A DNA stretch of 64,000 nt from assembly GCA_965226795.1 (NCBI GenBank), contig CBDDDZ010000005.1:2016001-2080000 (forward strand), in the 5' to 3' direction. Shown here one piece after another: positions 15,599-44,151 of the stretch. Position 1 is the stretch's first letter; each line of letters starts with the position of its first letter. Under the pieces are notes generated by a model. The model did no database searches. It saw only the letters and a program-made list of their open reading frames with translations, and had not been told where the DNA came from. The position numbers were made by a program, and so were the translations under genes. The DNA is from Candidatus Latescibacterota bacterium (GTDB lineage: Bacteria; Latescibacterota; UBA2968; GCA-2709665).

Positions 15599-15816
15599 AG
15601 TCGTATCATCCGAAGCTTAAAAAAATCGGTGCGCCTTCGCGCTCGACGCGACGGTGGGCCACGGGCTCCCGCGATGTTCAGCGGCAAGTGTATTTGTGAC
15701 GCTGAAGTATACGAGGGCGACGTCCGGAAGCCAAGCACCTTCGGTCCAACCCCGTACCCGAATTCTCACGAGTGCGCGAACCGGAAGAATTATCCCAAAT
15801 GAACGGAGGCACGCCA

Positions 15817-25181: not shown

Positions 25182-25409
25182 GTGGTTATGCCGCGAGAGA
25201 AATTCTCGAGCCAGGTGTCGCCGGAGTTGCTAGGCGCGATGCGGGAGATTGCCCGCCATGATGGCCGTCATTTTCAAGCGGTGCTGGAAGAAGCCATGCT
25301 TGAGTACATCGAAAATCGCGCTCAAGGAAAACCGCGCGCCTCGGTCATGGCCCACTTCCAAGCCAGCATCGAAAGAAACCGCCATCTGGGTGAAATGCTG
25401 GCAAAATGA
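25182..25409 (+). CDS. Putative RHH-type antitoxin
   Basis: 75 aa with beta-helix-helix pattern EKFSSQV. ATGA overlap with doc. Confidence 0.8.
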   Translation: MVMPREKFSSQVSPELLGAMREIARHDGRHFQAVLEEAMLEYIENRAQGKPRASVMAHFQASIERNRHLGEMLAK

Positions 25410-25795
25410 CCCATGACTTCCCCACCATACAGGAAGTCATCGTCATGCACCACGCCCTGATCAGCGCCTTTGGCGGCAAACCGGGTATTCGTGATGAAGG
25501 CGCCCTGGCCTCCGCGCTCATGCGCCCCCAGCTTGGATACTACGACGACCATGTCGAGGAAGCGGCGGCGCTTATGGAGAGCCTGGCCAATAATCACCCC
25601 TTCATAGACGGCAATAAACGGGCGGCCTTCTTCGTTACAGACACTTTCCTGCGCCTGAACGGCCACTTCATCGACTGCGACGGCGATGAAGCATTCGGTT
25701 TCTTTGTGCGGATGTTCGAGGCCGGTACATTCCGATTCGCCGAATTAAAGGCGTGGCTGCAGGACAGGGTCGCTCCCCTGCCTGTCGTTCGGTAA
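25406..25795 (+). CDS. doc: Death-on-curing (Doc/Fic) toxin
   Basis: Motifs GIRDEGALASAL and NHPFIDGNKR. Confidence 0.93.
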   Translation: MTHDFPTIQEVIVMHHALISAFGGKPGIRDEGALASALMRPQLGYYDDHVEEAAALMESLANNHPFIDGNKRAAFFVTDTFLRLNGHFIDCDGDEAFGFFVRMFEAGTFRFAELKAWLQDRVAPLPVVR

Positions 25796-29165: not shown

Positions 29166-31671
29166 ATACGGCTCCTGTCAAGTCGAGTTCAAAGATTTGT
29201 CGCCGACCGTTCGCGTTCCGGTCGTGAAGAAGCATAATTCCGCATGACTCTGAATCCAGCAACTGGCGCGCAACAAAGAGTCCCAAGCCACGGCCCTCAC
29301 CGGTACGCTTCATCGTAACGAAGGGCTCGAAAAGCGACTCCTCCACACTTAGGTCGACACCTCGGCCGTTGTCCTTGACACGAACCATTGGCGCATCCAC
29401 GATGATCGTAATCCTACCGTTCTTTACTAAGCCGGCACAAATCGCGTCTTTGAGCCAATACTCCGCATTAATCACCAAGTTGTCGAATACCTGTGTCAGT
29501 TTGCCCTTGTTCATGTTGACGGCAAATTCGAGAGAGCCGCCCTGCAGAACCTCCATCTTTATCGCCTTAGATTCCAACTTCTCATTGTAGAATGTTGCGA
29601 AATCCTTCGCCCACGTAAACACCTCGATTCTTTCCCGTTGCTCACGTAGAAAGCGCAGCGAGGGCGTCAAGTGGGCGAGTTGCTTCCGCATTGCAGCAAC
29701 GCTTGATCGGACATGCTCTACATATGAGATCATCGACGCCTTTCGTACAACGCGGTCCAATTCCCGAAGTAATGCCGCGCTTCTTCTTGCGAGCCGGTCA
29801 GCAATGTTGTGGATCTCATGAGAAAGTGCTTCTGCCGTGAGCCCAAGACTGATGCTCTCGTATAACGCTGACACCTCGTCCTGCAGCGTTTCCCACCGCC
29901 GATCGAGGACTTGCCGCAACGACTTCAATTCGGACGCCTGATCCAGAGCAGCCGAGACTTCATCGAGGACTTTCTCCGTGTTTGCCGCCGCGCTCGAAAC
30001 TTTCGTGAGCCCCAAATCGATACGTCTCAATGCGTCGGAAGTAGACGCACCCGCGACGCCAGTCTTGTCCAACTCGTTGCGGGACTCATCAAGCATCTCT
30101 GAAGCCACTCTCGCTGCCTGTCGTAGCGATCCTGCATGGTGCTGGACCTTACTCTTCTCGGACGATAGTCTCGCCGCGACGTCATCGATTCGTTGCGTAA
30201 CTGCAGAGTGCGCGTCGTCGGGTTCAACGCCGGCATTTCTATCGCGATGTTCCTTCAAAAACTGTAAAACACCACGCCGCAGAAACTCCTGGAAGTCGCC
30301 GGCAAACCGGACAAATTCTGATAGGAGACTGATAAAGTTTTCGTAATGTGGGGTCACTTGGAAGCCTTCACGGCTCGTTGTCTCGACTAGATTGCTATTA
30401 TCACGAGCGCTGATCGCCACGAAGCCTAGAACATTGCCCGGCCGTAACCCATAATAAGACGACCCTCTCGTCCATTGCTTCCCCAAGCCGAGCCAGTCCC
30501 CTCCTACCCGAATGCCAAAACCATCGCGATACACGCGGATACCCGCGAGGTCGCGAACAAGGCGACGGTAGTCGGACTGCCTGCCAAGCCCGTGACTCGC
30601 AGCGTCAGAGCTGTCAAGAGAAACCGCATCTACCTCCCCGCGAAACGGACCCGGATTTACCGTAGAACCATCTACTCTACGTATCCCATCCAAATCGTCA
30701 AGCTTACGCTTGGTGCCGAACTCAACAAACCATTCAGCCTGTTTGGCGAATTCAAAGGTTGGCGGCCGACCTCTCCCAGTCCTACTGGAGAGAAATTCGT
30801 AAAGTGCCTTGCCTCGGTCTCTTTGACAAATGTCATTTAGGCGATGTTGGTCGCCTTTGCTGTTGGGCTGTAGGTAATTAAGTCGCGCGACACCAGATAT
30901 TGAGAAGACTCCTTCATCAAACACGAAGTTGTACTTCAGCAACGCGGTCTCCCGCAGTCTCTGAGCGATTTTAGCAAGTTCAAGGCGCTTTCCATCGACC
31001 TCTAGATGTACTTGGAAATCACGCGCTTCTTGAAAAGGCGAGATCATCCCAGAAAGTTCCATCTCAAGGTTTCGTAGGTATGCCTCATCCTGCCACACTT
31101 CTAACTCGCGCAAATCAGAAAGAATAAGCCTTGTTCCGGCCTTTTGTCCAAAGGCCGAACTCTGCTTCCACGTTAGAGGGACGTCTCGGAGATTGGTAGC
31201 CTCTCGGAAGTCCGACCACGAAAATGCAACGTAAAACTCTGTCGTCGGATTCGCGTTATGGCGGGTAACGATCTCAACGTTTCGTGCCAGCCTCTGGCTG
31301 CCTAGCCGCCCTAGGCCTTTGTCGCCAATTGGGGTCCGACCAAGCGGGCTCGTCCCCCCGGCTGCCTTAAGCTCACGCTTTGGCGAGTTCGCTATGGTCA
31401 GCCAGCCGCGTCTAATTGTCTGCTCGTCCATACCGTGGCCATTGTCCTCCACGACAATCGATCCTTTTGCATCACCGTATTTGCGCCCCCATATGTTCCG
31501 TTCTCGGGTGTCAATCGAGACCTTCACCCAGGTAGCATCAGCATCGTAGCTATTCTTAACTAGCTCTACAAGCGCCTGGACGACATCGGTGATGAGCTCT
31601 TCGCCGAGCCGGAAAACAACCGCGGCGTTGATATCGAAATGCCGAGCTTGGGCAATGTCCTTCAAAGCCAA
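29158..31671 (-). CDS. MORC-type GHKL ATPase fused to a histidine kinase
   Basis: N-terminal ELVKNSYDADA, DNGHGM, GDKGLGRL. IRVYRDGF/TSREG region and a coiled coil. H-box SHEIHN, then DNLVINA, DNGRGV, FEPFVT, GRGLGL. Confidence 0.9.
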   Translation of the reverse strand: MALKDIAQARHFDINAAVVFRLGEELITDVVQALVELVKNSYDADATWVKVSIDTRERNIWGRKYGDAKGSIVVEDNGHGMDEQTIRRGWLTIANSPKRELKAAGGTSPLGRTPIGDKGLGRLGSQRLARNVEIVTRHNANPTTEFYVAFSWSDFREATNLRDVPLTWKQSSAFGQKAGTRLILSDLRELEVWQDEAYLRNLEMELSGMISPFQEARDFQVHLEVDGKRLELAKIAQRLRETALLKYNFVFDEGVFSISGVARLNYLQPNSKGDQHRLNDICQRDRGKALYEFLSSRTGRGRPPTFEFAKQAEWFVEFGTKRKLDDLDGIRRVDGSTVNPGPFRGEVDAVSLDSSDAASHGLGRQSDYRRLVRDLAGIRVYRDGFGIRVGGDWLGLGKQWTRGSSYYGLRPGNVLGFVAISARDNSNLVETTSREGFQVTPHYENFISLLSEFVRFAGDFQEFLRRGVLQFLKEHRDRNAGVEPDDAHSAVTQRIDDVAARLSSEKSKVQHHAGSLRQAARVASEMLDESRNELDKTGVAGASTSDALRRIDLGLTKVSSAAANTEKVLDEVSAALDQASELKSLRQVLDRRWETLQDEVSALYESISLGLTAEALSHEIHNIADRLARRSAALLRELDRVVRKASMISYVEHVRSSVAAMRKQLAHLTPSLRFLREQRERIEVFTWAKDFATFYNEKLESKAIKMEVLQGGSLEFAVNMNKGKLTQVFDNLVINAEYWLKDAICAGLVKNGRITIIVDAPMVRVKDNGRGVDLSVEESLFEPFVTMKRTGEGRGLGLFVARQLLDSESCGIMLLHDRNANGRRQIFELDLTGAVCA

Positions 31672-31674
31672 GAG

Positions 31675-33075
31675 CTACTCCTTCCTGAAGACGAGAATGG
31701 ATTCCTTGCGCATCGTGCTCGAAATGGCGTTCCGGGTTGCCATCCTTTTGCTTGGGATCTTCCGATGTATTTTTGTGACCAGGCAGATCCCTTTGGCGTC
31801 AAGTAACTCCTCTAGTATCTCGTCGGTCGGGACAGGTCTACCTCCCACACGTCGGTTGCCGACTGTCCAAATCATGTAGGCGCCGTGTCTAAGGGCTCGC
31901 AGCACCGGACCAAGGGAAACGGCCAAATCACGGCAGTATCCAGCCACGCGTTTCGCTCGATCGGCAGGCAGCCGTTCTAGCCGAATCAGGGTCTCCTTGA
32001 GGGTGGGGCTTACCTCCAGCAAATGTTGAACGTCGTGAATTGCATTTTTCTTCGAACCACCAAGGCTCCTAGTGTCGATTTCATAAGTAGATCGAAGATA
32101 GCTGGAGTCAGCCTTCTCGTCGATGTCATGCAGATCGATCCATTGTAGTGGGAGGTATGAGTACTGCCCGTATGGAACTGTTGTGGTGTTATCACCGTAC
32201 GGAGGAGATGTTACAAGTAGGTCGTGTCCACCAAGCGGAGGAGGTACCAACTTGGTGGAGTCACCGAGCCGAATGTCAACATCACCACTATAACACCCAT
32301 CGGCGGAAAGGTGTCCGCCGTCCTGAAGCACCGCGGCCTCGTCGTGAAGACGCCTAGTAATGTCAGAGACGATAATGTTAAAGGTTTCCAATGCATTTAC
32401 GCTTCGAGACCGGAGATCATCAGCACTGCGCACGTGTAACTTGAACGTGGAGGTGCGAGAGTTGCACGTCAGCCTTACTGTCTCTGCGAGGGCGGTCCAA
32501 AGAATGCGGCGGTACCAGGTGTCATCAACCCGCCGGATTGCCCGACGGATACGTGAGATTTCGGTGACTACTTCGGGTTCGAACCATTTCTCCAACCCAG
32601 GGAAGTCAGCTTCGGCGTTGCTTCCGCTGTCCGCACCCGCTAGTGCGACGACGCTCTTGACGGTGCTTGTGAGTCCATCGGTGCGGAAAGGACCGGCCTT
32701 AGTCCGGCAGAACAGCACAGCCAGCGGATTGATGTCTTGTCCGGAATAGTCTAGCCCTAGACGCATGCACTCAACCATTGTCGTTCCTGAACCAACAAAT
32801 GGATCGAGCACTCGGTCTACACTCCCAACAATATCTGCCACGGCGCTAACGAGTACCGCCTGCATCGATGGAACCATCATAGCCGGGTATTGAGTTAGTC
32901 CTTGGGCCTGACACCGCGAGGCACTTCGGCGAAACGCCCAGTAGTCATCGTCCGCCTCCGACAAGCTGCGGAGTCGTCGGACGATTTCGTCGTCTGTTGA
33001 ATTACTAGAAGCAATAACAGTCTTTCCTACTTCACCACCCGTGGGTCGTGTTTTAGGGTCGTCTAATCCTCGCAA
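31675..33075 (-). CDS. DNA methyltransferase (amino-MTase, probably m4C)
   Basis: YPAMM, motif I DPFVGSGTT before motif IV TSPPY, and VGNRRV. Likely TTG start at 33075 after GGAGG (ORF is open to 33258). Confidence 0.88.
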   Translation of the reverse strand: MRGLDDPKTRPTGGEVGKTVIASSNSTDDEIVRRLRSLSEADDDYWAFRRSASRCQAQGLTQYPAMMVPSMQAVLVSAVADIVGSVDRVLDPFVGSGTTMVECMRLGLDYSGQDINPLAVLFCRTKAGPFRTDGLTSTVKSVVALAGADSGSNAEADFPGLEKWFEPEVVTEISRIRRAIRRVDDTWYRRILWTALAETVRLTCNSRTSTFKLHVRSADDLRSRSVNALETFNIIVSDITRRLHDEAAVLQDGGHLSADGCYSGDVDIRLGDSTKLVPPPLGGHDLLVTSPPYGDNTTTVPYGQYSYLPLQWIDLHDIDEKADSSYLRSTYEIDTRSLGGSKKNAIHDVQHLLEVSPTLKETLIRLERLPADRAKRVAGYCRDLAVSLGPVLRALRHGAYMIWTVGNRRVGGRPVPTDEILEELLDAKGICLVTKIHRKIPSKRMATRNAISSTMRKESILVFRKE

Positions 33076-33254
33076 TCTCGCCTCCGTAAGGTCCAGTAAT
33101 CCAGCAAGTACTGTGTATTGGCATAAGTGTTTGCATTTCGGAATTTGAGATATTGTCAAACGTTGTGGATGGCGGCGAGCGCAGATTGTCAGGTTGGCAG
33201 GCGCATCCTTCTTGTGCGACTTATCCCGTCTGCGGGAACCCACTCTCTTGGATG

Positions 33255-36200
33255 TCACCCGGAAGCTCGCGTCTCGCCTGCCGGCTCGTAGGCGAGATCG
33301 AAAACGGTATCGGCCATCCAGCGCTTGAAGCCCGGGTTGTCCATGTACAGTTTGAACAGTTCGGTGTCGTCACGCATCACTCCAGTCATCACCCGAACCA
33401 GCGCCTTGTCGTGCTCGATCCGGGCATTCTGGCGGTCGGAGTTCTCCCGTGCGTTTCGGAACGCTGTGTCGGCGGCGACGCGGGCCGGTATGGTCTCTAA
33501 GATGAGTTGCTGCACGCGGTCCTCATCTTCCCATTGAATGTCACCATAATGCTCGTTGAAGACCCGAAGTATGCTGGAGAGTCGATCCAATTCCGGCTCC
33601 GGGTGATGCCCTCCGCCGGCTGCCGGTACCGGATCGATCTCGGCATTCTCGTCCGGCAACAGGAACCGTTGCATTGCCTGCTTCTCAACCCGATAGCTGT
33701 CGAGATCGATCGCATCAAGGACACCTTTGGAGAGATCCTCTTCCTCGGGAGCCGGCAACTTAGGGACCAGGAAGTTGAGGAAAATTGAACGCTTTTCCCA
33801 TGCGGGGTCGTTGTATGGAAGGATGGATGAAAGAAAGGCGTAGGTTCGCACGAAGGCTTTGGCCTTACCTTTGAACGCGACCTGGCCGTCTTCGTCCAGC
33901 TCCCGCCGATAGACCGCTACGCAAGCGTCCAGGATTGGATCGAGAAGGTCGCGTTCCTCTCCGGCCAGGTAGCGCCGGACAAACTCGTCGATCTGCACCT
34001 CGGAATAGACCTGCGCGCCGTCCAGGTCCGCCTGCAGGTCGTGCAGCTTGTTGGGGTCGGTCTCGTCGGCCAGGATCGTCGCCCGGTAAAAGTCCGCGAA
34101 CGCTTCGCGGATGGTGTCGGTGTCGTTGAAAAAGTCGAGCACGAACACATCGTGTTTCCTGGGATGCGCCCGGTTGAGGCGAGACAGGGTCTGCACGGCC
34201 CTTATTCCTGACAGCGTCTTGTCCACGTACATCGTGTGCAGCAGGGGTTCATCGTAGCCGGTCTGAAACTTGTCCGCGCACACCAGGAACCGGTAAGGAT
34301 CCTCCTGGAATCGCTTGGCGATCCGGGTGGAAGGCAGGCCGTTCAGCGACGCCTCGCTTACCCTGGCGCCGCCGTAGTCGTGCTCGCCGGAGAAGGCGAC
34401 CAGAGCCTCGTAAGAGCTCTTGCGCTCCCTGAGATAGTCGCGGATGGCATGGAAGTACTGGATCGCGCGCTCGATGCCATTTGTGACAACCATCGCCCGC
34501 GCCGCGCCGCCGATCTTTCCCTGCTTCAGCACCTGGTCATGAAAATGGTCGACCATGATCTCGGCCTTGAGGCGAATCGCGTGGTCGCTGCCCTCCACGA
34601 AACGGCGCAGCTTCTTTTGTGCTCTGCTAGCGTCGAACTCCGGGTCGTCTTCAACGGTCTTGGCAAGCTTGTAATAGCTGGCCACCGGCGTGTAGCGGGC
34701 GAGAACGTCGAGGATGAATCCTTCCTGGATCGCCTGCTTCATCGTGTAGCTATGGAAGGCGCGATGCCTCACCGTACCGTCGGGCTGCGGGTCCGCGGCG
34801 CCAAAGATCTCGAGCGTCTTGTTTTTGGGCGTGGCGGTAAACGCGAAGTAGCTGGCGTTGGGAAGGAGCTTTCGCGATTCCATCAAACGGTTAATCCTGT
34901 CTTCAAAGGTATCCTGATCGTCTTCTTCGCCCGCTTCCGACAGCGCCTGCGCCATGGCTGCGCTGGTGCGGCCCCCCTGGCTCGAGTGGGCTTCATCGAT
35001 GATGATGGCGAAGCGCCTCCCACGCTGCTCGTTGCCGATCTCGTCCAGGATGAAAGGGAACTTCTGGACCGTGGAAATGATAATCTTCTTGCCGCTTTCG
35101 ATGAACCGGCGCAGATCGCCCGAGCCGTCGGCATGCCCTACCGTCGCCGACACCTGGGCGTATTGTTTGATCGTGTCGCGGATCTGACGGTCCAGGATGA
35201 GCCTGTCCGTTACGATGATGATCGAGTCGAAAACGGGAGCATCGTCCTTCTCCAGCCGGATCAGTTGGTGGGCGAGCCAGGCGATGGAGTTGCTCTTGCC
35301 GCTACCGGCGGAATGATGGATCAGATAGCGCTGACCCGCACCGCGGGCGCCCGCGTCGGCCAGCAGGCGGCGCACCACGTCGAGCTGATGGAAGCGCGGC
35401 CAGATTTGGGTACTCCGCTTCCTGCCGCTCTTTTCGTCCTTCGACGCCACCACCTGGGCGTAATTCTCCAGGATGTTGGTGAGACTCTCCCGCGTGAGTA
35501 CTTCACGCCAGAGATAGGAGACCGCAAGACCGTGCGGGTTGGGCGGGTTGCCCGCGCCGTCGTTCCAGCCGCGGTTAAAGGGAAGAAACCAGGACGCCTT
35601 ACCCTTTAGGTGTGTACAAAAACGCGCCTCACGCTCATCCAATGCGAAGTGCACGATGCACCGCCCGAATTCAAACAACTTTTCGCGAGGGTTCCGGTCC
35701 TTTCGGTACTGCCAGACCGCATCGTCCACCGTCTGTTTGGTGAGGCTGTTTTTCAGCTCAAACGTGAACACCGGCAGCCCGTTAATGAACAGCCCTATGT
35801 CTAGCGCCCGCTGCGCCTCGTCCCGGCTGTAGCGAAGCTGCCGCGTGACGGTAAAGCGGTTCTGCTCGAACAGCTCCTGTGCCTGCGGGTTGCCGGCCGA
35901 CGGGGTGCCGTAGAACAGATCCAGGTGGAACGATTGGTGCTTGATCCCGTTGCGAAGCGCGTCGATGGTGCCGCGCTTGCTGATTTCGCCCTGAAGCCGG
36001 GTCAGGAACGCGCGCCGCACCGGACCGTCTTCGGAAAGCGCCAGCGCCTCGGCGGCCTCCGGCTGGGTGTCGCGCAAAAATGCCGACAGTTGCACCAGAT
36101 CGACGCAGTACTCACGGTCGTAGTCGTGGGGATTGCCGCAACTCCACCCGACACCGCCATAACCGGCAGCGGGTTCTGCCACTGTGCCCGTAGAGGGGGG

Positions 36201-36272
36201 ATCGCACGTATGGCCGGCCAGCGCCGTGCAGATGAGGCGTTCGAGGCCGCGTTCGGAGGTATCGGTGGGCAT
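33255..36272 (-). CDS. hsdR: Type I restriction endonuclease subunit R
   Basis: Nuclease motif D..LFINGLPVFTFELKN, Walker A HSAGSGKS, IIDEAHSSQ, FTATPK, KFQTGYDEP, QTLSRLNR. Confidence 0.97.
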   Translation of the reverse strand: MPTDTSERGLERLICTALAGHTCDPPSTGTVAEPAAGYGGVGWSCGNPHDYDREYCVDLVQLSAFLRDTQPEAAEALALSEDGPVRRAFLTRLQGEISKRGTIDALRNGIKHQSFHLDLFYGTPSAGNPQAQELFEQNRFTVTRQLRYSRDEAQRALDIGLFINGLPVFTFELKNSLTKQTVDDAVWQYRKDRNPREKLFEFGRCIVHFALDEREARFCTHLKGKASWFLPFNRGWNDGAGNPPNPHGLAVSYLWREVLTRESLTNILENYAQVVASKDEKSGRKRSTQIWPRFHQLDVVRRLLADAGARGAGQRYLIHHSAGSGKSNSIAWLAHQLIRLEKDDAPVFDSIIIVTDRLILDRQIRDTIKQYAQVSATVGHADGSGDLRRFIESGKKIIISTVQKFPFILDEIGNEQRGRRFAIIIDEAHSSQGGRTSAAMAQALSEAGEEDDQDTFEDRINRLMESRKLLPNASYFAFTATPKNKTLEIFGAADPQPDGTVRHRAFHSYTMKQAIQEGFILDVLARYTPVASYYKLAKTVEDDPEFDASRAQKKLRRFVEGSDHAIRLKAEIMVDHFHDQVLKQGKIGGAARAMVVTNGIERAIQYFHAIRDYLRERKSSYEALVAFSGEHDYGGARVSEASLNGLPSTRIAKRFQEDPYRFLVCADKFQTGYDEPLLHTMYVDKTLSGIRAVQTLSRLNRAHPRKHDVFVLDFFNDTDTIREAFADFYRATILADETDPNKLHDLQADLDGAQVYSEVQIDEFVRRYLAGEERDLLDPILDACVAVYRRELDEDGQVAFKGKAKAFVRTYAFLSSILPYNDPAWEKRSIFLNFLVPKLPAPEEEDLSKGVLDAIDLDSYRVEKQAMQRFLLPDENAEIDPVPAAGGGHHPEPELDRLSSILRVFNEHYGDIQWEDEDRVQQLILETIPARVAADTAFRNARENSDRQNARIEHDKALVRVMTGVMRDDTELFKLYMDNPGFKRWMADTVFDLAYEPAGETRASG

Positions 36273-36280
36273 TGTGAACC

Positions 36281-36694
36281 CTACTGGTCCGTAAACGGGT
36301 TTATGACCCGGAGGCCATCGTAGTCCTGTTCTGTACTCATATCCTCGGTGTACACGGCATCGCAACCCAGGGCGCGGGCTGCGGCGAGAATTGCGCCGTC
36401 CCAGTAGGACAGCCGGAAACGTTGGCTGATGGCGATGGCCTCGAGAAAAACGTCCATCGTCATGGTCTGAATCCGGAACAGCAGAATCGGCTCCAGGAAT
36501 TGCAAAGCTCTATTGCCAGAAAGACTGCGGATCCGTGTCGGCCGGGTGGCTTGGTGATAGAACTCCTGCAGCACCTGAACGGACGCGGCGAGGTCGGGTT
36601 CTGTCAGGACTTCCAGCGCCCGCGCCCGCTTGTCGGCCTCCTCCGGGACCTCGCTGACAGCGTACAGCAGGACATTGGTATCTACGAATCGCAT
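36281..36694 (-). CDS. vapC: PIN domain (VapC-like) toxin
   Basis: Motifs FVDTNVLLYA, QVLQEF, SYWDGAI, YTED, NPF. Confidence 0.92.
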   Translation of the reverse strand: MRFVDTNVLLYAVSEVPEEADKRARALEVLTEPDLAASVQVLQEFYHQATRPTRIRSLSGNRALQFLEPILLFRIQTMTMDVFLEAIAISQRFRLSYWDGAILAAARALGCDAVYTEDMSTEQDYDGLRVINPFTDQ

Positions 36695-37044
36695 GGCGAG
36701 ACTCTGAGTGCTTCAGAGATGCTGCGCTGCCGCTCGCGCTCGGCGACAGCCTCGGCCCTTGCCGCGACGCGGTCGTACAACGCTTCTCTGGGCAGGTTGT
36801 CGGACATCCGCAACCCAATACCCTGTCTATCGAAGTCCGCGAGCACTTCCCGCAGCAGCCTGCACCGACGCTGATAGATGGTTTCAATAGACTCTGCACT
36901 GGCTTCGCCCCCCGCATCCGGCTCCGCTGCCAGGTGTCTCAAGTAGTCTCGCACGAGGGCCGAAACCGATGTGTCCATCTCTGCCGCACGGATACGTGCG
37001 AGCCGGTGTGTCTGCTCGTCGACGGATACGGTGATGTTCCTCAT
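36682..37044 (-). CDS. RHH-type antitoxin (VapB-like), intact copy
   Basis: MRNITVSVDEQTHRLARIRAA..DTSVSALVRDYL and LPREALYDR. Overlaps the PIN gene. Confidence 0.88.
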   Translation of the reverse strand: MRNITVSVDEQTHRLARIRAAEMDTSVSALVRDYLRHLAAEPDAGGEASAESIETIYQRRCRLLREVLADFDRQGIGLRMSDNLPREALYDRVAARAEAVAERERQRSISEALRVSPCDS

Positions 37045-37103
37045 AATCACAGCCTCACAGTTTCTGTCTTGCGCACTATAGGCATCTATTGCCAGATGGG
37101 CAA
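37045..37103 (-). promoter_or_regulatory. Antitoxin promoter/operator
   Basis: TTGCCC-17-TATAGT. Tandem CTGTGA motifs before the ATG. Confidence 0.7.
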
Positions 37104-37216
37104 CACCTGCGGCGGCGAGGGAGCTTTGTGGTGAAAGGTTGAAGTTGCGTATGGCGGACCCGCAGGTTGACCCGGCAAGCGGCGGCTCCTGTTGGACGGG
37201 TTTCGCACTGCTTAGG

Positions 37217-37249
37217 TTCAAGGTCGTATTCGGAGCTGTCGCTGTTCAT
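37217..37249 (-). pseudogene. Relic of an hsdR 5' end
   Basis: MNSDSSEYDLE versus HsdR MPTDTSERGLE. Starts 4 nt after the DUF5615 stop. Confidence 0.5.
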
Positions 37250-37253
37250 GCTG

Positions 37254-37586
37254 TCACTCGCCTCTCATAGGGATGGGGACTTCCCGGACTTCTCCGGGCT
37301 GAATCCCGTCAAGGACGGCGCGAATATCCTCAATCCTTGGCTCGATGAGCGGCCACCGGTTCGCCCCAAGAACGATCAGTGCGAAGCTACGGCTTCCGAT
37401 GTTCTGTTGGTATGGCATGTTCCTGTCCGCAGTAATCACAACGCCATACCCTGCTTCTTCCGCCCGGTCCAGCAATTCGCCATTGACAAGCGTTGCCCAC
37501 CCGTGCTCTTCAGCCACGTCAACATCGTGGCCGACGAGGTGACGGCGAAGCTGCCGTGGCGCATTGTGGTCAAACAGTATTCGCAT
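37254..37586 (-). CDS. DUF5615-type PIN-like toxin
   Basis: Motifs MRILFDHN, GW..L.NGELL..AE, ITADRN..YQQN. Confidence 0.88.
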   Translation of the reverse strand: MRILFDHNAPRQLRRHLVGHDVDVAEEHGWATLVNGELLDRAEEAGYGVVITADRNMPYQQNIGSRSFALIVLGANRWPLIEPRIEDIRAVLDGIQPGEVREVPIPMRGE

Positions 37587-37818
37587 GCGAGACCCTGGCG
37601 ACCTTGGCATCAAGGTCTTGCACTACGAATTCCAGAACCGCCCGCACCTTTGCTTCGTCTACCCCGCCGAACCATTCGATAAAGTCGTGGACCGTTGCGC
37701 CCTCCGCAAGGTTGCCGAAAAGGGCCGACACAGGCAGCCGGGTCCCGGTGAACACCCAGGCCCCGCTCACCCTGCCAGGCACGCTCTCCACCGCCGGGCA
37801 CTTGCTCCAGTCCGTCAT
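37570..37818 (-). CDS. DUF433 antitoxin
   Basis: SGAWVFTGTRLPVSALFGNL..GATVHDFIEWF. Overlaps the toxin gene. Confidence 0.92.
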   Translation of the reverse strand: MTDWSKCPAVESVPGRVSGAWVFTGTRLPVSALFGNLAEGATVHDFIEWFGGVDEAKVRAVLEFVVQDLDAKVARVSHANTV

Positions 37819-38138
37819 ACGGTCACCTCCTTGCTCTTCTGCCGATTCTGCGGCGTCCGCCTGGCGTCTGTGGTCAAACCGTAACCATGTAGTGGTTCAC
37901 CGCAACCGAATCCGCCGCCGTTGGCCGTAATCTTCTCAATGACCTCGTGCAATGTCCTGCGACGGCGTTCGATCTCCTCCTCTACGCTTAGCCCGCTGTT
38001 CACTGTGCTGGCGCGGTCCGCAACCAGACTCTTCAGGTAGTCCCGCACCAGAGCCGATACCGACGTGTCCAACTCCGCAGCACGGATACGTGCGAGCCGG
38101 TGTGTCTGCTCGTCGACGGATACGGTAATATTTCTCAT
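37815..38138 (-). pseudogene. Second RHH antitoxin copy, 3' end replaced by a hicB fragment
   Basis: N-terminus nearly identical to the 37044 copy. 37870-37901 is identical to 43721-43752. No cognate PIN gene follows. Confidence 0.75.
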
Positions 38139-38197
38139 GGTCACAGCCTCACAGTTTCTGTGTGACACAATATACGCATTAATCGGTCGATGTGCAA
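38139..38197 (-). promoter_or_regulatory. Antitoxin promoter/operator (paralogous copy)
   Basis: TTGCAC-17-TATATT. CACAG-aaa-CTGTG palindrome plus tandem CTGTGA. Confidence 0.7.
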
Positions 38198-38223
38198 CAC
38201 CTGCGGCGGCGTGGGAGGTCCGT

Positions 38224-38250
38224 TAGGGGCGACCGGCCGGTCGCCCCTAC
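38224..38250 (-). repeat. GTAG-family REP 1 (supplies the hsdS stop codon)
   Basis: GTAG-GGGCGACCGGCCGGTCGCCC-CTA palindrome on the minus strand. Confidence 0.9.
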
Positions 38251-39650
38251 ATCGGTGGATGCTCGCTTGTGTACTCTTCTGCCGATTCCTCGTCGTCGCC
38301 CGAGACGTCTTCCTCAGGCAGTTCAGCCGCCGCCTTGCGCACATCGAGCTTGCCCGTGACGACATCGGCGATCAGGCGGGTGCGGTATTCTTGGAGGAGG
38401 GCGATCTCCCGGTGGGCACTCGCGATCGCTCCAGCCAAAGTTACGGTGGCTTTCTTGAATGCACTAACGATAGCCTCCTGTTCAGCTACCGGGGGAAGTA
38501 CAATGACCATCATATTCAGATGTTTGGGCCCAAAGTGCTCAATTCCCACTCCGGACTTTGCTAAATCAATCTGAACCTGAAACAACCGTGAATTCATGAA
38601 TAGTCGAACATATTCCATCACAGTTTGCTGTGATCGTGCCCAAAGTCGGATGATCCCAGTATAAGGAATGGCACCAGCTACCTCCGGACTCGCCAGTGCG
38701 ACCGCACCAGTACTCGCGCTCGCACTGAGCAAATAGTCGCTTTCCTTGACCGCAAAATGACTCCATCGCTTACCGACCATATCTGGATCCAGATAATTGC
38801 AACCATTCAACGTCGCCACCTCTTTGCGAAAACACGAGATTCGAAGCAGCGGCACTCCGGACTCGCGAAAATCCGCTGCCATGATACCGGGGCCTTCCTG
38901 AAAGCCGACGCGCTGCTTGAACGGAATAACTTCCCAATGCTTTGGCACTTCTCCTAGCCACTCCACCCTGGAGCGTTTATGGGCCGGGTAGGGCTGGCCG
39001 GTTCGGACGTCGATCTGGCCCGTGACGGCCTGGTGGATAATGGCCTGCTTCTGCTCCTCCAGCAGCGCAATCAGCTTCTGCCTGGTGCGGATGTAGCGCC
39101 GGATGCGCCGGTCGGCGTGGTCGAGGAAGCGGACGATGGCGGCTTGTTCGGGGAGGGGCGGGAGGGGAATCTTCTGTGACCCAAAGCTTTCGAAACGAAA
39201 GTCAGTTGACCGCTCGCGAATTCCCTTCGTGAGTGCCTGGATCCACTGGCTCCTTGCCATCTCGCGCAGGGCGTGGGCAAAGTACTCAGCTCTCGCTGTT
39301 GGTCCAGGTTCGCAAACAGAGTAGACCGGCGTCCCCTTGCCATTGGAGTCCGCCACACCGATCGCGCCCGCGAAGGCGTCCATCCCGTGGATCACAAGGT
39401 CACCACACCGAATGCCCTGGTAACCGATCTCCTTCAAGGACTCTGTAAAGCCACGCACACGACGATTCTTGCGAAGGGTAACCGCGCCGTCACGAAAGCA
39501 GGTTACAACTTCGTCAGCTTCCCTGACAGGCCGGTCCATCTTGCGAAACAACCACTTTCCCCGCTCGACTTCCCAATGCACCGGCACCCGCCCCAACCAC
39601 TCAATACTGGAGTCCTTGTAGGCAGGATAGCGTTTGAGATCTAAGGTCAT
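38247..39650 (-). CDS. hsdS: Type I R-M specificity subunit S
   Basis: Repeated conserved blocks YKDSSIEWLG.VP.HWEV and HKRSRVEWLGEVPKHWEV, PPLPEQAAIV and PPVAEQEAIV, LIADVVTGKLDVR. Two TRDs. Confidence 0.96.
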   Translation of the reverse strand: MTLDLKRYPAYKDSSIEWLGRVPVHWEVERGKWLFRKMDRPVREADEVVTCFRDGAVTLRKNRRVRGFTESLKEIGYQGIRCGDLVIHGMDAFAGAIGVADSNGKGTPVYSVCEPGPTARAEYFAHALREMARSQWIQALTKGIRERSTDFRFESFGSQKIPLPPLPEQAAIVRFLDHADRRIRRYIRTRQKLIALLEEQKQAIIHQAVTGQIDVRTGQPYPAHKRSRVEWLGEVPKHWEVIPFKQRVGFQEGPGIMAADFRESGVPLLRISCFRKEVATLNGCNYLDPDMVGKRWSHFAVKESDYLLSASASTGAVALASPEVAGAIPYTGIIRLWARSQQTVMEYVRLFMNSRLFQVQIDLAKSGVGIEHFGPKHLNMMVIVLPPVAEQEAIVSAFKKATVTLAGAIASAHREIALLQEYRTRLIADVVTGKLDVRKAAAELPEEDVSGDDEESAEEYTSEHPPM

Positions 39651-39660
39651 CATCACAATT

Positions 39661-39903
39661 CACCATTGTAGGGGCGACCGGCCGGTCGCCCGTGCGCCGT
39701 ATGGATCCTGGCCGTACATAACGGCAGGATTCTCCGGGTCTGCCGGCCATCTTCCAGGGTTCTCCGCGATGTATTGCCGAATCCGATCCAGCGCGGATTC
39801 GTTCCGGAAAACGTGTTCGTAGTAATTGCGCTGTCAGACCGGTATATCGGGTGTGCCGCGCATGGCGTTGATGCGTTTGGTACGGTCTGAGGTCAAAGTT
39901 CAT
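39661..39903 (-). pseudogene. Chimera: hsdS-like start (MNFDLRPY) joined to a RAYT 3' fragment and REP 2 (39668-39691)
   Basis: 39661-39880 is a diverged tandem copy of 39910-40128, with TGA replacing the W of WQRNYYEH. Confidence 0.85.
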
Positions 39904-39908
39904 CACTA

Positions 39909-40496
39909 TCACCAATGTAGGGGCGACCGGCCGGTCGCCCGTGCGTCGAGTGGATCCTGGACGTCCCTGATGGCAGGATTCTCCGGGTCTTCAGACCATC
40001 CGGCCGGGTTATCTGCGATGTATTGCCGAATCCGGTCCAGCGCGGATTCATGCCGGATGACGTGTTCGTAGTAATTGCGCTGCCAGACCGATGCACCGGG
40101 CGTGCCTCGCATGGTGTTGATGCGTTTGGTCGTGGCAGATTTGAATCCGGCCATCATCGCGCCGAGTGAACTGGGTCGCGGCCCACTGCGGGCGACCGGC
40201 CGGTCGCCCCTACAGCGTTTGTTGACAATAATGACGATGCCATGAACGTGGTTCGGCATGACAATCCATGCGTCCAGTTCGATCTCGATGCGGATCCGTG
40301 CAGAATTTAGCCATTCCTCTGCGGCCATCCGGCCAAATTCGCTCAACTCCACCTCACCATCATTCACTTCGCCAAACAGTAATTCCTGGCCCTTTGTGCA
40401 GACTGTGATAAAGTATGCGCCGGCTCGTGAATAGTCGTAGTTGCGCAATCGGATCGACCGACGGTGACGTTTCTCCGGATCGCAGGAGGTGTTCAC
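39909..40496 (-). mobile_element. REP-associated tyrosine transposase (RAYT / Y1 HUH) containing REP 3 (39917-39940) and REP 4 (40190-40213)
   Basis: Motifs RRSIRLRNYDYS..GAYFITVC, HUH motif MPNHVHGI, WQRNYYEHVIR and catalytic RQYIADNP. Confidence 0.93.
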
Positions 40497-40615
40497 TATG
40501 CCCTCAGAATTTCGTGCAACAATTGCTCAGACACTCTCTCCATTGCCGAAATGTCGGCCCGGATCTCTTCCAGCGTGAGCAGCGGCTCAGGATCAGATTT
40601 GAGATCTAAGGTCAT
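40496..40615 (-). pseudogene. 39-aa chimera: hsdS start joined to an hsdM C-terminus
   Basis: MTLDLK (19 bp identical to 39633-39651) plus PLLTLEEIRADISAMERVSEQLLHEILRA*, compared with HsdM PMRTLEEIRADIVALEKETEGLL. Confidence 0.85.
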
Positions 40616-40629
40616 CGAATTATACACCA

Positions 40630-40845
40630 ATGTAGGGGCGACCGGCCGGTCGCCCTATGCCGAATGGATCCTGGACGTACTTGATAGCGGGATTCTCCGG
40701 GTCTTCCGCCCATCCGGCCGGGTTATCCTCGTTGTATCGCCGAATCCGGGGCAGGTTCACTATGTGCCGGAAGTTCCAGCTTGCCAGCACGTCGACCCCG
40801 GCCAGGGTCGCCGTAGCGATATGCAGGGCATCGCTCGCCCTTGCG
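40630..40845 (-). pseudogene. Chimera: PIN fragment joined to a RAYT C-terminus and REP 5 (40632-40657)
   Basis: DALHIATATLAGVDVLASWNFRHIVNLPRIRRYNE is read in frame into DNPAGWAEDPENPAI. Confidence 0.85.
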
Positions 40846-40863
40846 CTTTAGTTTCCCTTCGGG

Positions 40864-41079
40864 TCAGCCGTCGCGACGATCTGTTGGCATGTCCTGCGTC
40901 GATTTGCGTATCCGCGCAGCCAATGCTTCCAGCCTGGGGTCGGAATACCGCCTGGAATTGAACCACTCTACCTGTTCCTCGATGGTCATGTCGGCGGTCT
41001 CGGCGGCAATGCGGGCGCGGGCGTCGCGCATGAACCGGACGCAGTCAAACTTCTTTTCAACGCGAGTCGCTTCAGTCAT
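40864..41079 (-). CDS. Small putative antitoxin downstream of the PIN domain
   Basis: 71 aa containing KKFDCVRFMRDAR. ATGACTGA overlap with the hsdM::PIN stop. Confidence 0.7.
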   Translation of the reverse strand: MTEATRVEKKFDCVRFMRDARARIAAETADMTIEEQVEWFNSRRYSDPRLEALAARIRKSTQDMPTDRRDG

Positions 41080-43510
41080 GGACGATTTCCTCCGGCGTGC
41101 GAATGTCGATGGCAGAGTATCCATTCTGACGATTGACCTCGTTGCAGGCCCTGATGCGCCGCCAGTTCACCATGTGCCTGAAATTCCAGCTTACCAGGAC
41201 ATCGGCTCTGGCAAGGGTGGCGAGGGCGATGTGCAGCGCATCGGTCCGATTGGCCCCACCCAGGGCCTCACCCGAGATGTAGGCATCGGCGAGCTTTCTT
41301 GCTTCTCTTGAAACGGCGAGCAATTCCGTGTGTTCCGGGGGAACGATGCTGGCCACCTGCCTGATGGAAGGCGGAGCATCCGCCAGTTCATCCAGAGTGA
41401 CGGCCGAGAGGAGCATCGTGGCTTCCCCCCGGCGAAAGACCTCGAAGAGCTGCTTCGATTGCTCGCGGAATTCATTGTCATGGCAGCCGCCGATCACCGA
41501 GGTATCCACGTAGATGCGCGGCTTGCCGTACACAACCGACGGTTCGCGCACCATCGGCAGATCCCCGAGCAACCCCTCCGTTTCTTTCTCCAGCGCCACG
41601 ATGTCCGCCCGGATCTCCTCCAGGGTCCGCATAGGCTGTGGTTTGTAGAAATATCGGGTGAAGCTGATCTCGTAGCCGATTCTTATGCTGTCTGCTTGGT
41701 ACCAGGCATCAGCGGCATAGGGCAGAACTTCCCGCCGCAGGAAAGCTTCAATGCCACCCTCCTCCTGCAGCGGAATCTGCTCGGTGTCGCGCAGGTCGGT
41801 GTCGGGTTCGTACTCCACCACGACGGGCTTGCCGTTTACAGTAGCTTCGAACCGGCCGCGCAGCGGGTCGGCCTTAGTGTCTCTCTTATGGATCTTCTTG
41901 ATGATGTGCGGCGCGGTGTCGCTGCGCTCGCCGCTCTCCTTCAGCTTCTTAATCTCGGCGGCCTTGTAAGCGCGGCTGGGGTCGGCACCTTCGAGCCGCA
42001 GCGGCCGTTCGACCATCACCTTCCAGTAGCCGAAGGCGGCGTTGTCGAAGATCTTGCTCTGCTCGCTTTCCTCAAAGGCGAGGAAGGTGTCGCAGATGCG
42101 CTGGATGTCCTCCTCGCCGAGTTCGCAGTTCTTCTTGCCCAGGTTCTTGCGCAGAGGCCGGTACCACCCGGTGGCGTCGATCAACTGCACCTTGCCCCGG
42201 CGATGCTCCGGCTTGCAGTTAGTGAGTACCCAGACGTAGGTGGCGATGCCGGTGTTGTAGAACATGTTGAGCGGCAGGGCGACAATCGCCTCCAGCCAGT
42301 CGTTCTCGATGATCCAGCGGCGGATATTGCTCTCGCCCTGGCCGGCGTCGCCGGTGAACAGGGAACTGCCGTTGTGCACCTCGGCGATGCGGCTCCCGCC
42401 CTCCTTCATCTTGGAGAGCTTGTTGGCGAGAAAGAGCATCTGGCCGTCGCTGGAGCGGGTGACCAGAGAATATTCGGGATCTGCGGCGTGCTCGATCACG
42501 AAGCGCGGGTCCCGCATTTCCTTCTTGCCGCCCATGCGCTCCAGATCGGTCTTCCAGCTCTTACCGTAGGGCGGATTGGAGAGCATGAAGTCGAACTCGC
42601 GGGACGGGAAGGCGTCGTTGGCCAGGGTGGAGTGCTCGGGGCCGCCCACGATGTTGTCGGCGGCGTCGCCTTCACCCTTCAGCAGCAGGTCGGCCTTGCA
42701 GATGGCGTAGGTTTCGGCATTGATCTCCTGGCCGTAGAGATGGGTGGAGACCTGCCTGCCTTTTTCGGCGGCGAGTTGCTGAAGCACGTCTTCGGCCACG
42801 GTCAACATGCCGCCGGTGCCACAGGCTCCGTCGTAGATCAGGTAGGTGCCGGACTTGATCTGGTCGGCGACGGGCAGGAAGACCAGCTTCGCCATCAGGG
42901 TCACGGCGTCGCGCGGGGTCCAGTGCTCGCCCGCCTCCTCGTTGTTCTCCTCGTTGAAGCGCCGGATCAGTTCCTCGAAGATCGTCCCCATGCCGTGGTT
43001 GTCAAGGCCGGGGTGCCTGACCGTGCCGTCGGCATTGCGCACCGGGGCCGGGCTCAGGTTGATGTCGGGCGAGGTGAGTTTTTCGATCAGCGTGCCCAGG
43101 GCGTCGGCCCTGGACAGCCGCGAAACCTGGTTGCGGAACTCAAAGTTTTCGAGGATGTCCTGGACGTTGGGCGAGAAACCGTCAAGCCAGGCCCGGAAGT
43201 CGGCCTCAAGCTGCTGGCGATTGGCGCGGGCGCGCAGGTCGCGCAGGGTGAACGTGGAGGTATTGTAGAAGTCCTGTCCCGCCGCCTGCCGCAGGGGCTC
43301 GTGTTGGTCGACCAAGCCAATTTTGTCGAGGGAGGCCTGCATGTCCAGGACGTTCTGCTTGCTATCCTCCAGTACCGCGTCGAGCCGGCGCAGAACGGTC
43401 ATCGGCAGGATCACGTCGCGGTACTTTCCGCGCACGTACAGATCGCGCAGCACGTCGTCTGCGATTCCCCAAATGTAGTTTGCGATCCAGTTAAGGTCGG
43501 CATTACTCAT
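41072..43510 (-). CDS. hsdM: Type I R-M methyltransferase subunit M with C-terminal PIN domain fusion
   Basis: Motifs GEHWTPRD, YDGACGTGGML, SNPPY, FYNTGI, GYEISFTRYFY. Then without a stop IYVDTSVIGG...EL...DALHIALA...VSWNFRHMVN. Confidence 0.95.
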   Translation of the reverse strand: MSNADLNWIANYIWGIADDVLRDLYVRGKYRDVILPMTVLRRLDAVLEDSKQNVLDMQASLDKIGLVDQHEPLRQAAGQDFYNTSTFTLRDLRARANRQQLEADFRAWLDGFSPNVQDILENFEFRNQVSRLSRADALGTLIEKLTSPDINLSPAPVRNADGTVRHPGLDNHGMGTIFEELIRRFNEENNEEAGEHWTPRDAVTLMAKLVFLPVADQIKSGTYLIYDGACGTGGMLTVAEDVLQQLAAEKGRQVSTHLYGQEINAETYAICKADLLLKGEGDAADNIVGGPEHSTLANDAFPSREFDFMLSNPPYGKSWKTDLERMGGKKEMRDPRFVIEHAADPEYSLVTRSSDGQMLFLANKLSKMKEGGSRIAEVHNGSSLFTGDAGQGESNIRRWIIENDWLEAIVALPLNMFYNTGIATYVWVLTNCKPEHRRGKVQLIDATGWYRPLRKNLGKKNCELGEEDIQRICDTFLAFEESEQSKIFDNAAFGYWKVMVERPLRLEGADPSRAYKAAEIKKLKESGERSDTAPHIIKKIHKRDTKADPLRGRFEATVNGKPVVVEYEPDTDLRDTEQIPLQEEGGIEAFLRREVLPYAADAWYQADSIRIGYEISFTRYFYKPQPMRTLEEIRADIVALEKETEGLLGDLPMVREPSVVYGKPRIYVDTSVIGGCHDNEFREQSKQLFEVFRRGEATMLLSAVTLDELADAPPSIRQVASIVPPEHTELLAVSREARKLADAYISGEALGGANRTDALHIALATLARADVLVSWNFRHMVNWRRIRACNEVNRQNGYSAIDIRTPEEIVHD

Positions 43511-43539
43511 CGTTGTACTGCTCCTCGAAATAGGACTAC

Positions 43540-43700
43540 GAGTCGCTCGGCAGTTTCAAACCTCGATGGATTCTTCTCTAACGAGATGAAGGCGAATCAC
43601 CCCTCGGGCGCCGCCTTCGTCAAAGTAACATCGCACCGCATCTTGGACCGAGTTTTTCAGGCATTCCCAATTATCTTGCTAGGTGAAGATGCCGTAGCCA
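43540..43700 (-). pseudogene. Remnant of a HicB-like antitoxin plus the first codons of its HicA-like partner
   Basis: GYGIFT*QDNWECLKNSVQDAVRCYFDEG...IRLHLVREESIEV*, overlapping TTG-KLPSD. Confidence 0.65.
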
Positions 43701-43724
43701 GGCGATTCGGCCGGGCTCGGGTGG

Positions 43725-43952
43725 TCAAACCGTAACCATGTAGTGGTTCACCACGACCGACTCCGCGGCCTGATCATCATCCCGCTCAAGCTCGTCGAGA
43801 TACAACCTGATCGCGTCGGCGACCAGGTCACGCACCTCTTCCTCCGTTTTCCCCGCCACGCCAACGCCGGGAAGTTCCGGAACATACGCCCCATACGCGC
43901 GGGGTCCGTATTTCTCTACAATGACCAGATACTCAGCCTGCGCCATCTCCAA
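43725..43952 (-). CDS. hicB: HicB family antitoxin
   Basis: YGAYVPELPGVGVAGKTEEEV...AI.LYL. Confidence 0.92.
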   Translation of the reverse strand: MEMAQAEYLVIVEKYGPRAYGAYVPELPGVGVAGKTEEEVRDLVADAIRLYLDELERDDDQAAESVVVNHYMVTV

Positions 43953-44151
43953 CCTCCGTGTCGTTCTCTTTCAAACCGGCCTGTTTGAGCACCTGGCTAA
44001 GCGTGCCCGCCTTCATGTCTGCGTTGGGATTTCCAGCAACCACTACGATGCCAGACCTGGTAGAGTGTCGCATCACCCGGTGGCTCCCGCGGCGACGGAC
44101 CTCGTACCATCCGTCCTCTTGCAACTGTCTCAACACGTCACGGACCTTCAC
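43933..44151 (-). CDS. hicA: HicA family toxin
   Basis: Motifs LQEDGWYEVRRRGSH and GTLSQVLKQAGL. Confidence 0.93.
   Translation of the reverse strand: MKVRDVLRQLQEDGWYEVRRRGSHRVMRHSTRSGIVVVAGNPNADMKAGTLSQVLKQAGLKENDTEVGDGAG

Follow-up and report, generated by a model that had tools for sequence, protein, structure and literature searches.

A type I restriction-modification (R-M) operon lies on the minus strand of a 64,000-nucleotide stretch of a Candidatus Latescibacterota genome (contig CBDDDZ010000005.1, positions 2,016,001 to 2,080,000; hereafter the window), with toxin-antitoxin (TA) genes and a REP-associated tyrosine transposase (RAYT) gene interspersed among hsdM, hsdS and hsdR. We consider it probable that this fixed-site operon, with its relics that all point in one direction, is remodelled, with no integrase, by the alleles that related species carry at this locus, through illegitimate additions, recombinational swaps and deletions.

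Cargo turnover at a fixed chromosomal site

Orthologous hsdM genes were found in 11 of the 14 same-genus genomes searched. Counting a tandem copy in genome G008, this gave 12 loci, four of them single-contig; all 12 adjoin the same FAD-oxidoreductase gene, i.e., the site is fixed, and the array contents differ at each of them. The original prediction, made from the window's letters, had described an integrase-free array in which layered foreign DNA refreshes cargo and hsdS specificity across joints of short homology. The relatives bear this out: cargo varies at the fixed site, and each species has its own stack. Cargo in relatives includes GmrSD, Mrr, TIR, HNH and MNT-HEPN genes and several TA pairs, and no recombinase family other than insertion sequence (IS) transposases was present in 206 cargo or 28 flanking open reading frames (ORFs). 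The hsdS gene recombines by domain: in G006, the first target recognition domain (TRD) is 98% identical to that of G004 and the second 85% to that of G010. TRD extraction succeeded for 24 domains only, among which four pairs were shared, none involving the window.

The orientation that relics share with the operon genes was also seen across the genus. After 58 of 155 relic rows had been dropped (full genes, a library artefact, pieces of intact hsdS, or pieces outside the variable region), all 97 kept relics were in sense orientation (52 3' pieces, 22 5' pieces and 23 internal pieces), and repeats of ≥40 nt in 13 loci were direct in 77 cases vs inverted in one. This relic content exceeds chance: when overlapping 10-kb tiles of the genome were compared with long ORFs excluded, the tile of the locus held three distinct families of diverged direct repeats, a level met by 10 of 1075 tiles genome-wide. 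Five other tiles at that level, when inspected, contained LRR/repeat proteins, tandem paralogues or intergenic repeats. A DNA screen with REPs (repetitive extragenic palindromes) masked, used in place of a protein-level relic screen of 80 wider loci that was too insensitive (a known stacked locus scored 0), detected direct repeats in 11 of 11 genus loci (1–14 each) vs 6 of 55 loci of this hsdM family from other taxa, a contrast that is inflated because the screen dropped the 21 of 78 loci without hsdR within 10 kb and thereby removed long stacks. Four of the six repeat-bearing loci from other taxa carry the hsdM::PIN fusion described below.

Genes and relics of the operon

The hsdM, hsdS and hsdR genes are all open and match type I models, and NPPY, Walker A and DEAH motifs are present; judged by these models and motifs, the operon is a type I R-M system with predicted methylation and restriction activity. 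Self-comparison and domain matches recovered every unit listed in the original prediction, on the minus strand and in the order given there, plus one additional relic, an hsdS 3' end at ~37864-37820 directly preceding DUF433. In transcription order, with primes for relic pieces and double colons for joints, the features are:

43933..44151, minus strand: hicA toxin gene (Pfam HicA_toxin, E 2e-19)
43725..43952, minus strand: hicB antitoxin gene (domain match)
43536..43711, minus strand: relic, HicB-like 3' part with an internal stop plus the first codons of a HicA partner (sequence comparison; 53% amino acid identity to intact copies in loci L021, L023 and L026)
41072..43510, minus strand: hsdM::PIN in-frame fusion, 812 aa (HsdM 1-651, PIN ~661-812, PIN type A)
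40864..41082, minus strand: 72-aa partner gene of the fused type A PIN, likely antitoxin (start overlaps the PIN stop)
40749..40836, minus strand: PIN' relic, internal piece of a different PIN allele (repeat comparison; nucleotide identity 74–78% to the window's own PIN, 83–84% to foreign intact alleles)
40625..40749, minus strand: relic, RAYT 3' end with a REP at 40632-40655 (in-frame deletion joint to PIN' at R-I-R codons)
40496..40615, minus strand: hsdS-start::hsdM-end chimeric ORF, 39 aa (stop overlaps the RAYT start; joint also in G014, G008 and G007)
39909..40496, minus strand: RAYT/TnpA-REP gene (HUH and Tyr motifs; in-frame REP 40190-40213, REP 39917-39940)
39660..39906, minus strand: relic, hsdS start joined to RAYT codon ~121 to end, REP 39668-39691 (joint also in G007; RAYT' part 86% identical to the window's own RAYT)
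38247..39656, minus strand: hsdS, intact, two TRDs (domain/profile match)
38224..38250, minus strand: REP hairpin overlapping the hsdS stop (z -3.9)
37870..38138, minus strand: deletion joint between an RHH antitoxin 5' part and the end of a hicB (the latter piece 92% identical to hicB over 50 nt)
37820..37864, minus strand: relic, hsdS 3' end carrying the DUF433 ribosome-binding site (adjoins DUF433)
37570..37818, minus strand: DUF433 antitoxin-type gene
37254..37586, minus strand: DUF5615 PIN-like toxin-type gene (domain match)
37211..37249, minus strand: relic, decayed hsdR start of ~11 codons (weak in the window, clearer at the equivalent place in G013)
36682..37044, minus strand: RHH antitoxin-type gene (domain match)
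36281..36694, minus strand: PIN (VapC-type) gene (Pfam PIN, E 3e-12)
33255..36272, minus strand: hsdR, intact (domain/profile match)

Independent support for the chimeric joints

Short-read contigs from four runs of four studies bridge the joints with 0–8 differences and ≥31 letters on either side, indicating that the chimeras are not misassembled. The hsdM::PIN joint is bridged in runs X17, X19 and X1, the PIN'::RAYT' joint in X17, X19, X1 and X2, and the hsdR-start relic in X17, X19 and X2; the hsdS-start::hsdM-end and hsdS-start::RAYT' joints are bridged in X17 only, and RHH::hicB::hsdS-end in X2 only. X17 is possibly from the same study as the source of the window, and one of the runs is labelled sponge metagenome. 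The 812-aa fusion is also encoded in a second assembly, where three residues differ. Chimeras made by assembling mixed strains would be conceivable in a metagenome assembly, especially as no single short-read contig spans the whole stretch, yet we give this explanation practically no weight: contigs of four studies cross the joints, the joints recur in other species (single-contig genomes among them), and the relics are too diverged (74–92%) to be strain-like.

At 36301-37000, the RHH/PIN allele in all four runs differs from the window at 14–38 sites, even though X17 and X19 match the window exactly in the adjoining pieces. The divergent allele may reflect either a strain-level mosaic or another species.

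Origin of the pieces

DNA from related R-M loci had been expected to come from diverged paralogous loci. The layering stood up, the paralogous donors did not: no window relic was closely matched elsewhere in its own genome, and in-genome paralogous loci were rejected as donors. Among 72 repeat pairs, both copies were closer to another species in 58, 2 were sisters, 9 were mixed and 3 were without a foreign match, a tally that must be discounted somewhat as the pairs are non-independent and a single own copy competes at a disadvantage with the best of 11 foreign genomes. Mosaic patches point the same way and show recent exchange. The window and G013 agree at 99.1% over 575 nt (DUF433/DUF5615) and at 99.3% over 283 nt (hicA end to hicB), whereas their rpoB genes are 89.0% identical (93.2% and 95.1% in the best windows of equal length) and their core flanks 83–89%, and G003 and G007 share patches at 96.6–98.6% against 86.1% in rpoB. 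The second PIN of G001 is 98.7% identical to the fused PIN of G010, and a PIN-tail relic of G010 is 95.8% identical to the fused PIN of G008, i.e., a relic in one species is a live allele in another. Given the scarcity of sister copies and the 99% patches between species, the pieces appear to come from relatives' alleles rather than from in-genome paralogues; the donors are likely the versions of this chromosomal locus that related species carry.

Joints and a proposed route of remodelling

Two kinds of joint were distinguished. Back-jump joints lead from the start of a downstream gene, or the end of a module, to the tail of an upstream gene (hsdS-start::hsdM-end, hsdS-start::RAYT', hicB-end::hsdS-end), and distinct, independent hsdS-start::hsdM-tail joints occur in two other genera. 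Forward-jump joints are deletions, so that the original view of relics as layered additions fails for PIN'::RAYT' and RHH::hicB-end. The former sits at shared R-I-R codons and is seen with two distinct PIN alleles; it is identified as a deletion because G003 matches G007 as far as the joint. The latter is what a deletion running through hsdR would leave if hicAB followed that gene, the order found in G006 and G009. Young deletions in the decayed operon copy of G008 have ~1–7 matching bases. Most window joints are old and common to other species, which suggests that new joints are rare and then travel as modules. Two further candidates were set aside: HsdM-tail relics as working in-frame fusions to cargo, since they are mostly frameshifted or short, and the 9-mer CGGATTCGG at two window joints, which is not kept at the same G007 joint and was treated as chance.

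In the remodelling that we propose, an incoming allele would, rarely, pair by homology at one end, at the hsdM tail, the hsdS end, the hsdR start or the end of the upstream gene, while its other end would be joined at a more upstream position by microhomology of a few bases. The old module would thereby be pushed downstream, leaving a "downstream-gene start::upstream-gene end" scar; such one-end homology with a microhomology joint is what has been proposed for type VI secretion system (T6SS) arrays. Homologous recombination between alleles, anchored in genes and relics, swaps modules and hsdS domains across species, as the mosaic patches show, and deletions at 2–7-base matches trim the duplicates, as the joints show. 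Selection may then retain antitoxin-type genes along with the tail of the upstream gene, in which their translation starts. For the first slot, the outcome would be a polymorphic-toxin-like array, with HsdM bearing one PIN tip, the matching partner next, and orphans of other types behind. One-end-homology integration is plausible; with relics already in place, much the same scars would result from circle integration or from unequal crossover, and the available text of PMC3784515 gives unequal crossover with donor DNA as an alternative route. Movement of hsdMS islands by transduction is described for other bacteria in the accessible part of PMC12829572. A ComEC gene is present in the window's own genome, weak evidence because ComEC was also detected in 10 of 14 control genomes.

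Several observations weigh against this account. No addition was seen as such; most of the joints in the window are old, and their exact parents are absent from the genomes compared, the relics being 74–87% identical to their best match; and the three other loci of the same hsdM family in the same genome show 0–3 repeat pairs per tile, i.e., the process is not general to the genome. In addition, an ancient duplication would likewise make foreign copies closer, and recent in-place copies exist (a triplication in G001 at 93–94% and one G008 pair at 98%). The last two points speak for in-place tandem duplications, some in the genus ancestor, followed by differential deletion and one-copy allele replacement with no illegitimate foreign joining. 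Tandem duplication also yields a "downstream start::upstream end" join, and it suits joints common to several clades. We nevertheless hold this unlikely, since sisters make up just 2 of the 72 repeat pairs, the cargo of tandem copies is unrelated or their PIN types are no more than 51–63% alike, and the order of partner types varies between genomes in a way that fits stepwise addition at the hsdM end. Less probable still is that modules excise as circles between relics, move from cell to cell and integrate by one crossover, duplicating the anchor. Circles would account for arrays that begin and end with the same partner type, as in G006 (A,B,C,A) and G009 (C,A,B,C), and the available text of Jackson et al. 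(PMC2935791) proposes them for rhs tips. However, other cargo lies between the redundant copies, the adjacencies give no single fixed circle, no circle joint was present among the listed joints of the four runs (68 joints unlisted; contigs drop rare forms), and the first illegitimate joints would still be required.

The original prediction had also allowed for RAYT nicking, in which RAYT cuts single-stranded DNA at REPs and so drives the joints. The RAYT gene has HUH and Tyr motifs, an in-frame internal REP and double-foot REPs, and scored 63.4 bits against NCBIfam NF047646 (TnpA-REP), whose curated cut-off is 80. TnpA-REP subclass 2.4 is characterized, in the part of Quentin et al. 2018 (PMC6006769) available to us, by an in-frame REP between the HUH and Tyr motifs and by double-foot GTAG REPs; the window RAYT shares the in-frame REP and the double-foot GTAG REPs and, by sequence, fits this subclass, differing in being R-M operon cargo that leaves many 3' relics. 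With five REPs and an intact RAYT in the window array, 7 of 120 joint ends no more than 10 nt away from a REP vs 2.1 expected, and one G001 joint abutted exactly by a second-type REP (a further point against our account), a role for RAYT has something to recommend it. Yet all seven ends belong to RAYT pieces, whose closeness to REPs follows from the REPs inside the RAYT gene. Of the other ends, 0 of 85 lay near a REP (1.3 expected), and stacks occur without REPs in the variable regions of G009, G010 and G003 (7, 8 and 2 relics) and in L033 (seven repeats). Nicking is thus not needed, and RAYT as the main driver of the joints is largely refuted; we regard it as very improbable.

A conserved HsdM::PIN fusion with matched and orphan partners

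In-frame hsdM::PIN occurs in 9 of 12 genus genomes (own included), and the best 120 database matches all cover 98–100% of residues 560–812 at 60–100% identity. The family comprises at least 120 clusters, Gammaproteobacteria and Acidobacteriota records included. Across 19 sampled homologues, the HsdM core agrees at 85–98% vs 53–85% for PIN; linkers are variable (89 distinct 12-mers), and 52 of 120 are without a Met ahead of the PIN start motif. PIN residues D669, E708 and N776 are kept in 118 of 118 aligned tails and D757 in 115 of 118; from PIN motifs, we take these to be active-site residues. With a ratio of non-synonymous to synonymous substitution rates (dN/dS) of 0.13–0.30, hsdM::PIN is a conserved fusion under purifying selection and not, as first supposed, a chimeric scar.

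Stand-alone relatives of the PIN tip number 1738, and homologues are named PIN/VapC; no solved structure was matched by sequence. None of the TA genes matched a PADLOC family, and the 72-aa partner has no Pfam family and only unnamed Atlas look-alikes. Four types of PIN tip occur in the genus, 51–63% alike between types and 79–99% within, and the first partner gene is type-matched to its PIN in 10 of 10 cases. From its small size, start overlap and type matching, the partner is likely an antitoxin, and the PIN tip, with its active-site residues kept, would form with it a putative type II TA pair.

Partner genes outnumber toxins: the genus loci hold 27 near-full partner ORFs (two without a normal start) vs 10 full PINs, 14 DUF433 vs 8 DUF5615, and 7 hicB vs 3 hicA. 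Up to three conserved orphan partner genes follow the fusion and its cognate, with dN/dS of 0.22 (n = 8) and 0.24 (n = 6) compared to 0.27–0.35 for cognates. An own-type PIN tail, which holds the overlapping start of the orphan, is kept ahead of 13 of 15 testable orphans (17 in total). Extant arrays include A-a, B-b-A'-a (G008) and A-a-B'-b-A'-a (G004), which can be read as stepwise additions at the hsdM end; the window has its cognate partner only, plus a PIN' stump with deleted partner. Records of Pseudohongiella, Thermoanaerobaculia, Acidobacteria and Ca. Multivorans likewise have several partners behind the fusion, and two others have a single one. Separately, a Thermoanaerobaculia record (L087:1435-5666) carries a second PIN with four partner-type genes upstream of its HsdM::PIN locus.

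We tentatively suggest, as a possibility rather than an expectation, that HsdM::PIN acts as an intracellular polymorphic toxin whose exchangeable RNase tip makes the type I system addictive or arms abortive infection, with the orphans as a selected immunity bank. Part of the antitoxin excess is explained by the plain lethality of antitoxin loss, RHH/PIN shows almost no such excess (13 vs 11), and the purifying selection on orphans may predate their orphaning; all three count against the remodelling account above, in which selection retains antitoxin-type genes.

Other observations at the locus and its relatives

In G008 (L024, L025), the entire operon is doubled in tandem; the first copy has collapsed through hsdM, hsdS and hsdR deletions, and the second opens with 181 nt copied from the end of the upstream gene. 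In G013 (L030) and G006 (L021), hsdR carries an in-frame REP insertion near codon 115. In G001 (L029:9571-10908), hsdS is split by an IS5-type transposase gene, upstream of which an hsdS-start/REP/RAYT' unit is triplicated at 93–94%, with the second REP type at a joint. The hsdR genes of G008 and G009 (L025, L026) are frameshifted near codons 249 and 780, either truly or through long-read error. At G000:C2:391300-396000, ~8 diverged tandem copies (~70% nucleotide identity) of a small lipoprotein-like gene lie beside an LRR-type gene.

Right behind hsdR, positions 27339-33258 of the window (minus strand) encode a type II-like methyltransferase, an 837-aa HATPase-domain protein and a 608-aa ORF that matched nothing in Pfam or PADLOC, at a GC content of 53.6% vs ~61% in the flanks, and likely form another defence module. 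Further off, the window carries a metallophosphoesterase::ankyrin-repeat fusion and two Fic-domain ORFs (15772-18558, 12447-13619 and 25406-25795, all plus strand).

Significance

Embedded cargo in type I operons and displacement arrays (Rhs, T6SS, T7SS) are already published. We found no account of relic stacks in type I operons, nor of an HsdM-PIN fusion, with type-matched and orphan partners or otherwise, in a literature search whose coverage left out most subscription papers. The genus offers a record, with extant intermediates, of how defence and TA genes become embedded and turned over in type I operons without a dedicated machine. According to the accessible text of Matelska et al. 2017 (PMC5499597), no TA nuclease had been shown to be physically linked to a type I R-M enzyme, and the HsdM::PIN family is a direct candidate for such a link. 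An anti-addiction role of orphan antitoxins is called not yet shown to be common in the available part of a 2020 review (PMC7354431), and the orphan partner arrays are a test case for it. If the tentative reading of the fusion is true, the RNase tip would make an otherwise freely replaceable type I system addictive, and the orphan bank would let a cell survive a relative's allele that displaces its own or arrives from outside.

Comparison with known systems

Integrons combine a tyrosine integrase with one repeated recombination site at cassette borders and an ordered array of swappable cassettes. The window resembles them as an ordered array of swappable modules; it differs in that the cargo and flanking ORFs surveyed above contain no integrase family, and there is no repeated recombination site because joints lie inside different genes and REPs are absent from non-RAYT joints. 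TA genes also occur in the pneumococcal tvr/ivr phase-variable type I loci. Phase-variable hsdS shufflons rely on a recombinase, inverted repeats and silent hsdS domains; here, the 13 loci hold a single inverted repeat, and the window has no silent hsdS domains, its hsdS relics being only 20–45 nt.

Cargo within type I operons has precedents in TgvAB and RloF (available text of PMC11411939) and in PIN and DUF433-PIN_10 genes (Matelska et al. 2017, PMC5499597, accessible parts). These are alike in having variable TA/defence cargo among hsdM, hsdS and hsdR that is unconserved in close species; as far as the accessible parts go (figure S7 of PMC5499597 lies outside the comparison), they describe neighbouring genes, without relic stacks, an HsdM-PIN fusion or orphan arrays.

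The closest parallels are displacement arrays. In Vibrio cholerae T6SS arrays, a new module is added at the conserved upstream end and old immunity genes are kept downstream, with homology-facilitated illegitimate recombination and, more commonly, ordinary recombination proposed as the cause (Kirchberger et al. 2017, PMC5361080, in the text available). Judged from that text, the present arrays are alike in upstream module addition, old partners downstream, the lack of an integrase and extant intermediates; they differ in having as anchor a cytoplasmic methyltransferase that plays no part in secretion, a PIN as tip, and remodelling in several slots of a single operon, deletions included. Similar displacement arrays are reported for T7SS immunity genes (PMC9484751, accessible portion). 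In rhs loci, according to the part of Jackson et al. 2009 (PMC2935791) at hand, a conserved core carries an exchangeable C-terminal tip and displaced tips lie downstream. Within the limits of that source, the likeness extends to a conserved core, a tip from a shared pool and displaced tips with core remnants downstream, although most orphans here retain nothing beyond the toxin tail and partner, the core is HsdM, and a whole unit (hsdM tail, PIN and partner) is kept complete in G001. Taken together, the fusion has the conserved N-terminal core and variable C-terminal toxin-type domain of polymorphic toxins, with an HsdM methyltransferase core in place of a secretion or delivery domain, and its orphans are arranged as orphan immunity genes are, with the cognate gene directly downstream and other-type orphans behind it, accompanied by toxin-tail remnants.

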